Positions 19,268-58,581 of a stretch of 64,000 nt of DNA are shown here, piece after piece. A model generated the notes under the pieces. The model was not told where the DNA came from and ran no database searches. It saw nothing but the letters and a program-made list of their open reading frames with translations. Source of the stretch: an uncultured Clostridium sp. (GTDB lineage Bacteria > Bacillota > Clostridia > TANB77 > CAG-508); contig USFW01000003.1 of NCBI GenBank assembly GCA_900553985.1, positions 31,492 to 95,491 on the forward strand, given 5' to 3'. Position 1 is the stretch's first letter; each line of letters starts with the position of its first letter. Made by a program: the position numbers and the translations under genes.

Positions 19268-19343
19268 TGGGGCTTCCAACGGGAATTGAACCCGTGACCT
19301 CCACCTTACCAAGGTGGCACTCTACCTACTGAGCTATGGAAGC
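19268..19343 (-). tRNA. tRNA-Thr (anticodon GGU), CCA encoded
   Basis: Reverse complement GCTTCCATAGCTCAGTAGGTAGAGTGCCACCTTGGTAAGGTGGAGGTCACGGGTTCAATTCCCGTTGGAAGCCCCA folds as a cloverleaf. Anticodon loop is TTGGTAA. Confidence 0.9.
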
Positions 19344-51234: not shown

Positions 51235-51309
51235 GGCCCCTTGGTCAAGCGGTTAAGACGCCACCCTCTCAAGGTGGAATCATGGGTTCGATTCCCGTAG
51301 GGGTCACCA
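51235..51309 (+). tRNA. tRNA-Glu (anticodon CUC), CCA encoded
   Basis: GGCCCCTTGGTCAAGCGGTTAAGACGCCACCCTCTCAAGGTGGAATCATGGGTTCGATTCCCGTAGGGGTCACCA. The body is tRNA-Glu-like and the anticodon loop is CTCTCAA. Confidence 0.85.
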
Positions 51310-56160: not shown

Positions 56161-56207
56161 AATGACTGTCTTAGAATATGAAAATATTTCTAAGATAGTC
56201 ATTTTTT
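56161..56207 (+). terminator. ATPase terminator
   Basis: AATGACTGTCTTAGAA / TTCTAAGATAGTCATT stem and a T-run. Confidence 0.7.
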
Positions 56208-56290
56208 CTATACAACAAGTAAAAGCATCTTAAAAAAGACCCGCGATAGCTTTACTACTGTAGTTTCGATACTTTTCTTATAGATGAAGG

Positions 56291-56473
56291 CTAATTATAT
56301 AAATTTCGTTCATATAAATCATCAATAAAAACATCTTTTTCTTCAAAATTATCAATAAATCCAACTTTTGCAATGTTTTCATTTACACCTTGAATCCATA
56401 CAGGTCTATCATCATAAAAAATATCACATTTTTCTTTATTATCTAAAATAGAATATACTCTTTTTAAATCCAT
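56291..56473 (-). CDS. sspH: H-type small acid-soluble spore protein
   Basis: 60 aa. The pattern M..KR...IL......I.Y...PVWIQ.VNE is typical of the SspH family. Confidence 0.6.
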   Translation of the reverse strand: MDLKRVYSILDNKEKCDIFYDDRPVWIQGVNENIAKVGFIDNFEEKDVFIDDLYERNLYN

Positions 56474-56584
56474 AAAATCACGCTCCCTAAAAAATATATT
56501 TATTTAAAGTATATCCTTTGAAATGGATAAATATTCATAATAAGTCGATTTAAATTTTAAGATTTTATAAATATTTTATGAAAT

Positions 56585-56702
56585 TTGACATATAATAAAA
56601 TATGAGTTATAATACACTCAAGACGTCGATAAGTAGTTCTAAATAAAAAAACGTAAAAAGACTAGGAAGTCTCTCAAAACTTTTCCTAGTCTTTTCCTTT
56701 TT
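56585..56702 (+). ncRNA. candidate antitoxin sRNA (RNA II-like) with its promoter and shared terminator
   Basis: TTGACA (56585-56590), 17 nt, TATAAT (56608-56613). The transcript would carry TAAGTAGTTCT..ATAAAAAAACG (56630-56653). It ends at hairpin AAAAGACTAGGAA / TTCCTAGTCTTTT (56656-56695) plus a T-run. Confidence 0.5.
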
Positions 56703-56704
56703 GT

Positions 56705-56773
56705 TTAATCCTTTAAGTGCTTTACTATTAAGTAAATTAAATAAAGTTTCAACACTTTAAGTAGTTCTTTCAT
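56705..56773 (-). CDS. candidate type I toxin peptide (22 aa)
   Basis: Encodes MKELLKVLKLYLIYLIVKHLKD. GGAGG lies 11 nt upstream. Own promoter: TTGACA (56843-56838), 17 nt, TATATT (56820-56815). The terminator hairpin is read from the opposite side. Confidence 0.45.
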   Translation of the reverse strand: MKELLKVLKLYLIYLIVKHLKD

Positions 56774-56940
56774 AAAAAAACGATCCTCCTTTCTACCTTG
56801 AGAAAGGTAAGAACAATATATAGTATATAATGTGTTTTGTCAAATATAATTTATATTAATAAAATAAAAAATAAATTTGACTTATAAAATCAAATCATAT
56901 AAAATATATTAATAATATACAAAAAATAAGGAGGAATTTT

Positions 56941-58581
56941 ATGAAGATACAATATAAAGATAAAATAAAAGAAATAAAAGAACCAATGAAAATTAGTGAT
57001 TTATTCAAAGAAGAAATAGAAGAAAGTAAATACCCAGTTATAGCAGGAATATTCAACAATGAATATGTAAATTTAGATTATAAAATAGAAAAAGATGGAA
57101 AAGTAGAGTTAATAGACATCTCATCAAAAGAAGGGCAAAAAGTATATAGAAGAACATTAATATACATAGTTGGAAAAGCATTTGAAAAACTTTATCCAAA
57201 TGAAAGAATGGAAGTAAACTATCAATTAGCAAATTCAATGTTTTGTGATTTCATAGGAAAAGAAGTTACAGAAGAGTTTGTTAAAAAATTAACTGAAGAA
57301 GTAAAAAATATAATAGAACAAGATTTACCAATAAAACAAGTAATAATGAATATGAAAGAAGCAAAAGCTTTCTTTGAAAAAGAACATACTTCAAAAGGAA
57401 GATTGCAAATTGACTTAGAAAATAATGATGAAGTTTTTATGTATTTTTGTGAAGATTATTATAACTACTGTTATGGAACTTTAGCAAATAGAACAGGAAT
57501 AGTAAAAATATTTGAAATTGTAAAATATAATGATGGATTTTTAATTAGATATCCAAGTCAAAAAAATCCAGAGGTATTACCAGAACTTGCTGAAACTAAA
57601 AAGCTTGCATGGGCAATGGAAGAATATGATGATATTCATAAAATTTTAAATATAGAAAGAACATATAAAATAAATGAAGCAATAAAAGAAAAAAGAGTAA
57701 ATGATATAATAATGTTAGCAGAAGCATTACATGAAAAGAAAATAGCAAAAATAGCTGATAATATAGCACAAAATAAAAACATAAAAATGATTTTAATAGC
57801 AGGTCCATCTTCATCAGGAAAGACAACATTTGCACAAAGGCTAGGAATACAATTAAGATTAAATAGAATAAAACCAGTAACAATTTCAGTGGATAATTAT
57901 TTTGTTGAAAGACAAGATACACCAAGAGATGCAAATGGAGAATACAATTTTGAATGTATAGAAGCAATAGATTTAGAGCTATTTAATGAACATTTGACAA
58001 AGTTATTAAATGGCGAAGAAATCGAAATGCCAGAATTTGATTTCCATGAAGGAACAAAAAAATATAATGGAAAGATGGTAAGATTAGAAAAAGATGAAGT
58101 ATTAGTAATTGAAGGAATACACTGCTTAAATGATAAATTAACAAGTAAAATACCAGCAGAACAAAAATATAAAATATATATAAGTGCATTAACAGTATTG
58201 AATTTAGACAGATTTAATAGAATATCAACAACAGATACAAGATTAGTAAGAAGAATAGTAAGAGATTATCAATTCAGAGGATATTCAGCACAAAGTACAA
58301 TACGTACATGGAATAAGGTAAATGAGGGAGAGGAAAAAAATATATTCCCATTCCAAGAAGGAGCAGATTTCGTATTTAATACATCTTTAGTATATGAATT
58401 AGGAGCATTAAAGCCAATAGTAATGCCTTTATTAGAACAAATAACGAATAAAGAACCAGAATATGCAGAAGCAAGAAGAATAATGAATATGTTAAAATAT
58501 TTTGAAGAAATTCCAAAAGAATACATACCAAATAATTCATTGCTAAAAGAATTTTTAGGTGGAGGAAACTTTAAATATTAA
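56941..58581 (+). CDS. TGS-domain / uridine kinase-like nucleoside kinase
   Basis: N-terminal TGS-like region. P-loop AGPSSSGKTTFAQRL. The C-terminal half belongs to the PRK/uridine kinase family. Confidence 0.75.
   Translation: MKIQYKDKIKEIKEPMKISDLFKEEIEESKYPVIAGIFNNEYVNLDYKIEKDGKVELIDISSKEGQKVYRRTLIYIVGKAFEKLYPNERMEVNYQLANSMFCDFIGKEVTEEFVKKLTEEVKNIIEQDLPIKQVIMNMKEAKAFFEKEHTSKGRLQIDLENNDEVFMYFCEDYYNYCYGTLANRTGIVKIFEIVKYNDGFLIRYPSQKNPEVLPELAETKKLAWAMEEYDDIHKILNIERTYKINEAIKEKRVNDIIMLAEALHEKKIAKIADNIAQNKNIKMILIAGPSSSGKTTFAQRLGIQLRLNRIKPVTISVDNYFVERQDTPRDANGEYNFECIEAIDLELFNEHLTKLLNGEEIEMPEFDFHEGTKKYNGKMVRLEKDEVLVIEGIHCLNDKLTSKIPAEQKYKIYISALTVLNLDRFNRISTTDTRLVRRIVRDYQFRGYSAQSTIRTWNKVNEGEEKNIFPFQEGADFVFNTSLVYELGALKPIVMPLLEQITNKEPEYAEARRIMNMLKYFEEIPKEYIPNNSLLKEFLGGGNFKY

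Follow-up and report, generated by a model that had tools for sequence, protein, structure and literature searches.

The spacer between sspH and udk in this uncultured Clostridium sp. contains about 260 bp in which a short open reading frame and an opposing small RNA can be predicted, and the question that it raises is whether these two genes form a toxin-antitoxin system and, if so, of what kind. [quoted passage not shown] A preliminary description of the 64,000-nucleotide stretch of DNA analysed here (the window) had likened the locus to the enterococcal par system. We consider it probable that the spacer holds a chromosomal type I toxin-antitoxin cassette with the par (Fst/RNA II) architecture, which belongs to a new family and whose peptide is a candidate toxin. 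The par-like interpretation gains from a comparison across the family: the architecture is conserved as a unit, the ORF looks like a coding sequence, and the pairing blocks of the two RNAs co-vary.

The features of the cassette are given in Table 1. The individual elements that had been proposed, namely the two promoters, the single bidirectional terminator, the 22-codon ORF, the 5' UTR hairpin that pairs with the Shine-Dalgarno (SD) region and the direct repeats, were all located at the positions claimed for them.

Table 1. Positions (numbered from the first nucleotide of the window) and strands of the features of the sspH-udk cassette.
Feature	Position	Strand	Description
Cassette	56585-56843		~260-bp sspH-udk spacer; predicted gene pair: hydrophobic peptide of 22 residues and, facing it, a small antisense RNA
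sRNA promoter	56585-56613	+	TTGACA-17 nt-TATAAT; 12/12 consensus positions
Predicted antitoxin sRNA	56620-56700	+	~75-80 nt; unstructured 5' targeting region, then terminator stem-loop
Palindrome	56622-56627	+	GACGTC; predicted 5' end of the sRNA
sRNA copy of direct repeats	56630-56653	+	Targeting sequence; TAAGTAGTTCT (56630-56640) and ATAAAAAAACG (56643-56653)
Predicted toxin mRNA	~56808 to ~56648	-	~160 nt
Bidirectional intrinsic terminator	56656-56695	both	Common to both RNAs; 14-bp stem (56656-56669/56682-56695), 12-nt loop
Candidate toxin ORF	56705-56773	-	22 codons plus stop; product MKELLKVLKLYLIYLIVKHLKD
mRNA copy of direct repeats	56758-56782	-	Target site; blocks 56758-56768 and 56772-56782
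Shine-Dalgarno region	56785-56792	-	AAAGGAGG; GGAGG-to-ATG gap of 11 nt
5'-terminal mRNA stem-loop	56788-56807	-	CCUUUCU/AGAAAGG in the minimum-free-energy fold of the predicted mRNA
Toxin mRNA promoter	56815-56843	-	TTGACA-17 nt-TATATT; 11/12 consensus positions

The two promoters are convergent, with 230 bp between them, and the plus-strand sRNA promoter is probably the stronger. In the window, matches to at least 9 of the 12 consensus positions are as numerous as in shuffled sequence, and matches to at least 11 of the 12 occur about once per 6 kb (22 in the 128 kb of both strands). The ends of the sRNA were placed 6-8 nt past the -10 element and at the U-run, respectively. In its predicted fold the terminator hairpin is formed, and the 5' part is unpaired in the centroid. 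The terminator hairpin folds on both strands and has A-runs before it and T-runs after it on each; a simple terminator scan missed it because the scan limited loops to 8 nt. The two RNAs are predicted to overlap at their 3' ends by about 50 nt, an overlap that is formed by the terminator and gives them complementary 3' stem-loops. The stop codon (56705-56707) lies outside the terminator, and the ORF outside the 3' overlap. We infer that both RNAs are transcribed, and infer likewise their relative stabilities.

The two RNAs are further connected by an 11 + 11-nt direct repeat, in which TAAGTAGTTCT and ATAAAAAAACG of the sRNA gene both recur in the mRNA copy, at 56758-56768 and 56772-56782 respectively. 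In the mRNA, block CGUUUUUUUAU covers the spacer between SD and start together with the AU of AUG, and block AGAACUACUUA covers codons 2-6. Because of these repeats, the 5' part of the sRNA is complementary to the SD-start spacer, the start codon and codons 2-6. The duplex between this part of the sRNA and the translation initiation region has a predicted energy of -26.2 kcal/mol in the window module, compared to an average of -10.7 kcal/mol (sd 2.7) for dinucleotide shuffles, none of which reached it in 2000 trials. The complementarity in two 11-nt blocks suggested earlier is borne out. The 5' stem-loop of the mRNA is predicted to sequester the 5' half of the SD and to bury the 5' end of the transcript. 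Across the family this stem-loop is conserved as two sequence classes. Either class pairs with the SD's 5' half, 95% of cells being paired in one and 98% in the other, and compensatory support comes from one pair only (G-C to A-U).

In the peptide, a hydrophobic core (residues 4-17) lies between a polar N-terminus and a charged tail. The GRAVY of the core is 2.1-2.65, which is comparable to the value of 2.62 for Fst, and K6 and K9 break it up in most variants. The hydrophobic moment of the whole peptide is low at 0.08-0.21 (PSM-alpha3 has 0.44), with 0.5-0.6 for residues 1-11, the amphipathic N-terminal half. With a high core GRAVY and a low overall moment, the peptide resembles a transmembrane segment more than an amphipathic one. 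A classical transmembrane helix is, however, not obvious, because the peptide is short (22 residues) and lysines 6 and 9 interrupt the hydrophobic stretch. A PSM-like amphipathic peptide was considered and rejected on the basis of the low whole-peptide moment.

Databases returned no relative. Seven representative peptides gave nothing meaningful against Pfam, including the Fst model, or NCBIfam at E values up to 10, and the 24-sequence peptide alignment contains no Pro/Gly motif of the PXXXG type. Since this motif is absent, the peptide is not an Fst homologue, in agreement with the preliminary description. The whole window was without an Rfam match at gathering thresholds, and in positions 56400-57000, scanned at E values up to 10, the only matches (microRNA and VrrA, all with E above 0.5) were spurious and included no antitoxin family. 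In the literature, strings from the peptide core retrieved nothing, and work on type I systems in gut metagenomes contained no description of this family. The family thus appears to be previously undescribed, and it is spread through uncultured human-gut Clostridia.

The search for further copies of the peptide and repeat arrangement that had been suggested returned dozens of diverged copies: about 80 in gut Clostridia contigs, of which 56 are unique. The module is present on 74 human-gut metagenome contigs, which reduce to 56 unique modules. The pattern by which these were collected called for the sRNA promoter and the terminator arm, so that the conservation of these two elements is partly an effect of ascertainment. 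A profile search found additional copies outside the pattern. The closest relative, L002, has a diverged second copy in tandem, and L060 has a copy at another locus. The family occupies at least 15 unrelated chromosomal housekeeping contexts, with some copies in tandem; no conserved partner gene adjoins the cassette, and each context has its own flanking genes. Attenuation of udk or sspH transcription was rejected as an explanation, since the cassette recurs beside unrelated genes. A MITE-like element was also rejected: apart from the two promoters, no inverted repeats were seen at the ends, nor any duplication of a target site.

The preliminary description had looked to orthologous spacers for retention of the arrangement, and here it fared less well. 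In 52 related genomes the sspH-udk spacer is short and the module is absent, and only L002 came from this route; even genomes with 96% identity between their udk proteins differ in whether they have it. However, because the family occupies many other loci, we take its absence from orthologous spacers to reflect a sporadic, insertion-like distribution and not a lack of function. Plasmid and phage collections gave no match by blastn of the module or tblastn of the peptide, searches in which the low-complexity filter may hide short matches rich in AT or Leu. Viral contigs, scanned with a pattern, contained no module. Plasmids and phages, where the cassette was not found, are the typical home of addiction modules.

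The chassis of the cassette is well conserved. The 19-nt core of the sRNA promoter, TTGACATATAATAAAATAT, is almost invariant across the family, and the promoter is kept in the L002 and L060 copies as well as in copies that did not come from the search pattern. Family members have a TTGACA and a TATAnT-type -10 at the same place for the toxin mRNA promoter. All copies conserve the terminator stem; in L099b an A-T pair of the stem has become G-C by a compensatory change (GACTGGG...CCCAGTC). At the 5' end of the sRNA, the palindromes of other variants, 8-14 nt long, have another sequence but an unchanged offset (7-8 nt past the -10); palindromes of at least 8 nt occur here in 64% of 28 variants, compared to 15% of shuffles.

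The ORF itself appears to evolve as a coding sequence. There are 27 distinct peptides, all of 21-24 residues, in which frame and length are kept, with the consensus MK[DE]hhKhLKLhhIYLIVKxLxx; L10, Y14 and I16 are invariant in the alignment of 24 sequences. The entropy at the three codon positions is 0.94, 0.39 and 1.25, so that variability increases from position 2 to 1 to 3, and pN/pS is 0.46-0.48 (about 0.47) in frame compared to 0.67 and 2.5 in the other frames. An SD 6-11 nt from the start codon is kept throughout the family. Weak starts, TTG or GTG, are used by 19 of the 27 ORFs. Decayed copies are also found, which have lost the start codon, suffered a frameshift, mutated the SD or deleted the initiation region. 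Orphan sRNAs occur as well. That decayed toxins seem to outnumber decayed sRNAs is partly a matter of ascertainment, because the same pattern required the promoter and terminator arm.

The pairing blocks differ from variant to variant. Every family member has its own repeats at the equivalent position, always matching within a module, and many variants have in addition a third block, through which the sRNA 5' end pairs with codons 6-9. The co-varying blocks fall into about 15 specificity groups. Cognate duplexes average -24.5 kcal/mol and non-cognate ones -10.8 kcal/mol. For 25 of 30 pairs the cognate sRNA ranks first or shares that place with a nearly identical variant. The same holds for copies that reside together: the tandem copies of L002 give -22.6 and -23.9 kcal/mol for cognate pairs and about -10 kcal/mol for cross pairs, and those of L099 give -29 and -30 against about -11 kcal/mol. 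Co-resident tandem copies are accordingly predicted to be orthogonal, with no cross-pairing, and the antisense pairing appears to be under selection.

The closest architectural parallel is par of Enterococcus faecalis pAD1 (Fst/RNA II), whose defining features are given in the review of Weaver (2020, PMC7472228). As in par, convergent promoters share a bidirectional terminator, which produces complementary 3' stem-loops (PMC7472228); the ORF lies outside the overlap, a predicted 5' stem-loop sequesters the SD, and direct repeats of the DRa/DRb type render the sRNA complementary to the translation initiation region. The peptides are also alike in being small and hydrophobic with a charged N-terminal dipeptide (here MK[DE]) and a charged tail, and both systems occur on chromosomes and in several copies. 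The differences are that the peptide has 21-24 residues rather than about 33, has no PXXXG and no Pfam Fst match, and that its sRNA has no Rfam match; that this family has the third pairing block in many variants and the palindrome at the 5' end of the sRNA; and that its hosts are uncultured gut Clostridia, with no plasmid copies found. Of the separate 5' helix that stabilizes the mRNA in par, upstream of the stem-loop, we saw no distinct counterpart, and the 5' end of the mRNA is already buried in the predicted 5' hairpin. The terminator loops vary in sequence among copies, and the YUNR (U-turn) loop motif, which in par nucleates the kissing complex, is too degenerate to serve as a criterion; it is absent from some par homologues (PMC7472228).

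Other Gram-positive systems share parts of this design. In both Fst/RNAII and SprA1 the sRNA overlaps the 3' end of the mRNA, spares the ORF and pairs outside the overlap (T1TAdb, PMC8594479). SprA1/SprA1AS of Staphylococcus aureus thus resembles the present cassette in its 3'-overlapping sRNA, and SprA1AS represses through a non-overlapping 5' domain at the SD and start (PMC8594479); its product PepA1, a membrane peptide of about 30 residues, can be likened to the candidate peptide. There is, however, no similarity in peptide or RNA sequence, SprA1 lies on a pathogenicity island, and PepA1 has an Fst-type hydrophobic domain. The Bacillus subtilis systems TxpA/RatA, BsrG/SR4, BsrE/SR5 and YonT/SR6 are likewise convergent type I systems that overlap at their 3' ends, but there the sRNA overlaps the ORF, the pairing is the overlap itself, and control is mainly by RNase III-dependent degradation (PMC8594479); they have no direct repeats at the initiation region, and their toxins are 29-59 residues long and found in prophage regions. 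The Clostridioides difficile modules (CD2517.1-RCd8 and others) come from the same class of bacteria and also have convergent overlapping genes with small, hydrophobic, unannotated toxins (PMC6563280). For homologous copies of these, antitoxins specific to the cognate toxin have been reported (PMC6563280). Their toxins are 34-53 residues long with lysine-rich C-termini, and are linked to prophages, CRISPR arrays or riboswitches (PMC6563280); they have no sequence similarity to the present family and no direct repeats of the par type.

The RNA-level and coding evidence would fit equally well with an antisense-regulated small membrane protein that is not a toxin, such as a micro-protein with a regulatory or structural role or a peptide linked to sporulation or stress, whose expression the RNA logic keeps low or conditional. 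The chromosomal housekeeping contexts, with no link to plasmids or phages, agree with this explanation, as does the lysine-interrupted hydrophobic core, which is atypical of pore-forming toxins. We nevertheless think it rather unlikely. A housekeeping micro-protein would not be expected to sit in a dispensable cassette that is missing from close relatives, nor to be multiplied in tandem with diversified and mutually orthogonal pairing specificities, and it has no conserved partner gene nearby; moreover weak starts, a double lock on translation and inactivated ORFs are hallmarks of type I toxins.

A peptide that is secreted or active at surfaces and gated by antisense RNA (a cytolysin of the PSM type, a leaderless bacteriocin or a signalling peptide) is suggested by the length of 21-24 residues, which is about that of phenol-soluble modulins and some leaderless bacteriocins, and by the amphipathic N-terminal half. 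This we judge highly improbable, given that the whole-peptide moment is well below that of PSM-alpha3, that no transporter, immunity or processing genes accompany the cassette in its differing surroundings, and that RNA architecture of the par type is specific to type I toxin-antitoxin systems (PMC7472228, PMC8594479). Finally, at 25.8% GC promoter-like hexamers are common, as the shuffle-level count of 9/12 matches indicates, and short ORFs are frequent, so that the ORF and repeats might be by-products of an AT-rich, non-coding intergenic repeat with a terminator, or of chance. We give this hardly any credence: frame, length, SD spacing and codon-position pattern are kept over the 27 distinct ORFs, the duplex energy is beyond the reach of shuffled sequence, and the pairing blocks co-vary between the two RNAs in 15 groups.

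For the type I toxin-antitoxin cassette that we favour, we propose the following scheme, in which we infer the membrane targeting, the toxicity and the order of the pairing steps. A sigma-A promoter on the minus strand would produce the mRNA of about 160 nt for the hydrophobic 22-residue peptide, and the convergent plus-strand promoter an sRNA of about 80 nt, with both RNAs ending at the common terminator. In the nascent mRNA, the 5' hairpin would mask the SD and protect the 5' end. The sRNA would then pair along the translation initiation region, with the complementary terminator loops as a possible nucleation point, and block ribosome binding; RNase III may also cut the extended duplex. When sRNA levels drop, the peptide would be made, insert into the membrane and arrest growth.

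On this interpretation, the regulatory design of par has been reused with an unrelated and very short peptide in abundant, uncultured gut Clostridia. Genes of this class, with ORFs of fewer than 30 codons and often a TTG or GTG start, are missed by standard annotation. The family provides dozens of natural sRNA/mRNA pairs, from which one could learn what governs antisense specificity and cross-talk and build orthogonal regulators for Gram-positive hosts, and insertion, deletion and tandem variation of the cassette may add to the differences among close gut strains.

A wider proposal, on which we are evenly balanced, is that the modules constitute a new type I toxin family, unrelated to Fst and among the shortest in Gram-positive bacteria (21-24 residues), in which a conserved chassis of near-invariant sRNA promoter, terminator and peptide core is combined with RNA pairing blocks that alone have diversified, into at least 15 mutually orthogonal specificities. 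If so, there would be selection against cross-talk between co-resident copies, and the human gut microbiome would hold a natural library of orthogonal riboregulators. As a still bolder extension, the cassette might spread by itself between intergenic promoters. Two observations hint at this. The insertion beside the udk promoter is clean, and that promoter resembles the cassette's own sRNA promoter; and truncated, promoter-only copies flank some modules.

The preliminary description had placed convergent promoters, a short ORF, a shared terminator, a hairpin at the Shine-Dalgarno (SD) region and direct repeats in the spacer between sspH and udk, and the sequence from 56200 to 57200, together with the scans, contains each of these elements. 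They are listed with their surroundings in the table below. The ORF is the only one between the two promoters. In the window, which has a GC content of 25.8%, promoter matches of at least 11/12 positions occur 22 times over both strands, or about one per 6 kb. The terminator hairpin was overlooked by the terminator scan because its loop is 12 nt long.

Features of the par-like module and its surroundings in the window
Feature	Position	Strand	Basis or remark
SspH-family spore protein, left neighbour	56473-56291	-	Pfam PF08141
sRNA promoter TTGACA-17-TATAAT	56585-56613	+	12/12 positions match
Predicted sRNA (putative antitoxin)	56620-56702	+	Fold: 5' part unstructured, then terminator hairpin, then U-runs
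Palindrome at predicted sRNA 5' end	56622-56627		Perfect; 7-8 nt past the sRNA -10
Terminator hairpin	56656-56695		Fold: 14 bp
ORF encoding MKELLKVLKLYLIYLIVKHLKD	56773-56705	-	ORF scan
Predicted mRNA	56808-56645	-	Fold: 5'-terminal hairpin CCUUUCU/AGAAAGG over 5' half of SD AAAGGAGG; common terminator hairpin, then UUUUUACGUUUUUUU
Alternative hairpin UACCUU/AAGGUA	56794-56809	-	Would free the SD
mRNA promoter TTGACA-17-TATATT	56843-56815	-	11/12 positions match
Promoter repeat, sRNA copy	56581-56614		34 nt
Promoter repeat, udk copy	56873-56906		34 nt
546-aa protein, right neighbour	56941-58581	+	Named udk in the preliminary description
tRNA gene	19271-19343	-	At gathering thresholds, Rfam matches the window only here and in the next row
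tRNA gene	51235-51306	+	As preceding row

The 64-kb window has exactly two copies of the repeat TAAGTAGTTCT, at 56630 and 56758, each with ATAAAAAAACG 2 or 3 nt beyond it. The two RNAs cross these repeats in opposite directions, so that the 5' part of the sRNA is complementary to the SD-start spacer, the AU of the AUG and codons 2-6 of the mRNA. Complementarity of the two RNAs around the translation start, as claimed earlier, is borne out by a predicted duplex of -26.2 kcal/mol, a value reached by none of 2000 dinucleotide shuffles of the sRNA segment (mean -10.7, sd 2.7).

Searching with the module using nhmmer identified three copies: an orthologue in L002 (the locus of the closest relative), the diverged module in tandem with it, and one at another position in L060, from another related genome. 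Common to these copies are TTGACATATAATAAAATAT and the terminator arm AAGACTAGG, and a metagenome scan for these two sequences separated by a gap of 40-70 nt found 74 contigs, mostly from human gut. The search for further copies of the peptide and repeat arrangement, proposed in the preliminary description, brought the family to 79 instances and 56 unique modules, including the window and the genome loci. A profile search of the fetched DNA added copies outside the exact scan pattern, namely tandem pairs in L099 and L125, another copy at a distance of 5 kb in L102, and three on L112. These have repeats of their own and retain both the peptide and the promoter TTGACATATAATAAA[AT]T[AG]TGTGCTAATAT, and promoter conservation is therefore not solely an artefact of the search pattern. 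The flanking proteins place the family in at least 15 unrelated genomic contexts; those flanks that were tested encode housekeeping functions (AspRS, GatC/GatA, Tex, response regulators, histidine kinases, VanW and CoA-enzyme activase). An identical pattern scan of viral contigs gave no matches, and no family copies were found in the plasmids and phages searched.

With the reading frame picked from the profile score and the SD spacing, the complete modules specify 27 different peptides, 21-24 aa long, with the consensus MK[DE]hhKhLKLhhIYLIVKxLxx, of which L10, Y14 and I16 are invariant. Variability at codon positions 1, 2 and 3 is 0.94, 0.39 and 1.25 bits, and pooled pN/pS is 0.46-0.48 in frame, compared with 0.67 and 2.5 for the alternative two frames. 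These substitution patterns show the family ORF to be a gene under coding selection. Start codons in the 27 distinct ORFs are 8 ATG, 5 GTG and 14 TTG (19/27 TTG or GTG), with the SD 6-11 nt upstream; several variants have two in-frame TTG codons 3 nt apart (MLKE.../MKE...), which leaves the true start ambiguous in these. The core (residues 4-17) is hydrophobic, with a GRAVY of 2.1-2.65, and the hydrophobic moment of the whole peptide is low, at 0.08-0.21. By comparison with Fst, PSM-alpha3 and IbsC, the peptide resembles a short membrane helix more than an amphipathic peptide of the PSM type. Assignment to the Fst toxin family was considered and rejected: the peptide is only 22 aa long, lacks the PXXXG motif and has no Pfam or NCBIfam match, in agreement with the earlier remark that it does not resemble Fst.

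The position of the longest repeats between the sRNA 5' part and the rest of the module is constant in all variants, covering the start codon and the SD-start spacer, while the repeat sequences themselves vary: TAAGTAGTTCT/ATAAAAAAACG; AAGTAAGTC/ATAATGnC; ACTGTTCAAAATAGT; GTTTCACAA/AAGCAAAC; AAACTTTTCAAAAA/AAAAAGTAAC; and AAAATGTTGTTCA. Many variants have a third block, in which the sRNA 5' end (e.g. UUUAGCAAUU) pairs with codons 6-9. Over 30 distinct sRNA/initiation-region pairs, the mean cognate energy is -24.5 kcal/mol versus -10.8 for non-cognate pairs, and in 25/30 the strongest partner is the cognate sRNA, alone or tied with a near-identical variant. When pairs with a cross energy of at least 80% of the cognate value are joined, 15 specificity groups result, with a mean energy between groups of -10.1. 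Copies within one genome are insulated from each other: the tandem copies of L002 have cognate values of -22.6 and -23.9 against cross values of -10.2 and -9.9, those of L099 have -29.0 and -30.1 against -11.9 and -10.9, and the co-resident copies of L102, L112 and L125 behave likewise. As judged from this co-variation, which we count as shown, the antisense pairing is under selection.

The predicted 5' end of the sRNA also carries a palindrome, found at an identical offset in the modules of L002, L060 and L074-L147. Its sequence differs but palindromy is retained (GACGTC, GCAATTGC, GCTTAAGC, CAACGTTG, GCAATATTGC, TGACGTCA, GTAATTAC, ATTGCTTAAGCAAT), and palindromes of 8 nt or more are present in 64% of 28 variants, versus 15% of shuffles. 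Possible roles are those of a small 5' hairpin, a site of sRNA dimerisation or an operator.

The CCTTTC/GAAAGG hairpin described earlier is present in the predicted mRNA fold and belongs to one of two 5' UTR classes, CCUUUC/GAAAGG (class 1, as in the window) and CC..CUUGCU/GGCAGG..GG (class 2). Both hairpins begin at the predicted 5' end and cover the SD in its 5' half. The pair count is 95% in class 1, with no double changes, and 98% in class 2, where three sequences have one G-C to A-U compensatory pair; the hairpin is backed by conservation and by two solutions to one fold, not by rich covariation. The alternative UACCUU/AAGGUA hairpin is possible as had been claimed, and is mutually exclusive with the SD-masking hairpin; class-1 UTRs conserve its CCUU/AAGG core, and it could act as a conformational switch.

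The features of par are convergent promoters, a bidirectional terminator, DRa/DRb repeats over the initiation site, an SD-covering 5' stem-loop, an upstream helix and a U-turn loop (Weaver, PMC7472228). The promoters, terminator, DRa/DRb-type repeats and SD stem-loop are likewise found in the module. Only Fst/RNAII and SprA1/SprA1AS are noted to combine a 3' overlap clear of the ORF with pairing elsewhere than in the overlap (T1TAdb, PMC8594479), and the module has this arrangement. In Clostridia, type I systems are reported essentially from C. difficile, where the toxins are 34-53 aa long and par-type repeats are lacking, and Fst-like matches are reported in C. bolteae and C. asparagiforme (PMC6563280). 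An Rfam search assigned the module to none of the Rfam antitoxin families, and full-text literature searches turned up neither the peptide core nor the family. The comparison supports a locus that is par-like in operation but not an Fst homologue, a new family of a known kind of system. The mechanism itself is familiar; what is new is the family, its spread in uncultured gut Clostridia, and about 15 pairing specificities, orthogonal to one another, that share a conserved chassis, all directly testable.

The par model is the best-supported mechanism. The mRNA would form its 5' hairpin; the sRNA would pair over the initiation region and block ribosome binding, possibly nucleated by the complementary terminator loops; and loss of the sRNA would allow the peptide to be produced. 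The par-like reading is upheld to the limit of sequence analysis by pairing co-variation, coding selection and architecture, the last two, like the first, counted as shown; from it we infer transcription, relative RNA half-lives, pairing order, any RNase III role, membrane action and toxicity. The signs of toxicity are indirect: a predominance of weak starts, a predicted double lock on translation (5' hairpin and antisense RNA), orthogonal tandem copies, a sporadic distribution and apparently inactivated copies. Several copies look inactivated, including those with a start codon changed to CTG (L135), a frameshifted toxin ORF (L125), a mutated SD (L092, L109) or a deleted initiation region (L076, L087), and orphan sRNA genes lacking a toxin ORF (L084, L093, L139); this asymmetry of decayed toxin and intact sRNA is partly ascertainment, since the search needed an intact sRNA promoter and terminator.

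The right neighbour is presumably udk. A plain uridine kinase is much shorter than this product, which has an extra N-terminal region and is strongly conserved in the clade (57-97% identity in most of 73 loci); its relatives are without exception from uncultured gut Clostridia MAGs (humans, chickens, rabbits). The preliminary description had held that loss of the module from orthologous spacers would speak against it. The module is indeed absent from the 52/73 loci with sspH directly upstream of udk, where the spacers are ~150-220 nt. In L002 (udk 96% identical) the 775-nt spacer has two tandem modules; the window has one in 467 nt. L003, also with a 96% identical udk, has neither sspH nor module. 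Copy number and presence thus differ among very close relatives, which identifies the cassette as a variable insertion, and the joint absence from L003 means that near-identical genomes differ in the spore-protein gene and the cassette together. At L003 3790-3845, compared with window 56256-56867, sspH and the cassette are replaced by ~50 nt of unrelated AT-rich sequence.

The sRNA and udk promoters form a direct repeat, 74% identical, that flanks the cassette and shares AAATTTGAC[A/T]TATAA..., and a truncated additional copy of the sRNA promoter follows some other modules (e.g. L078 1630-1682). These may be the trace of cassette insertion or duplication, or mere promoter resemblance. Relatives lacking the module have the udk-type promoter only, TTGACTTATA...TACAAT.
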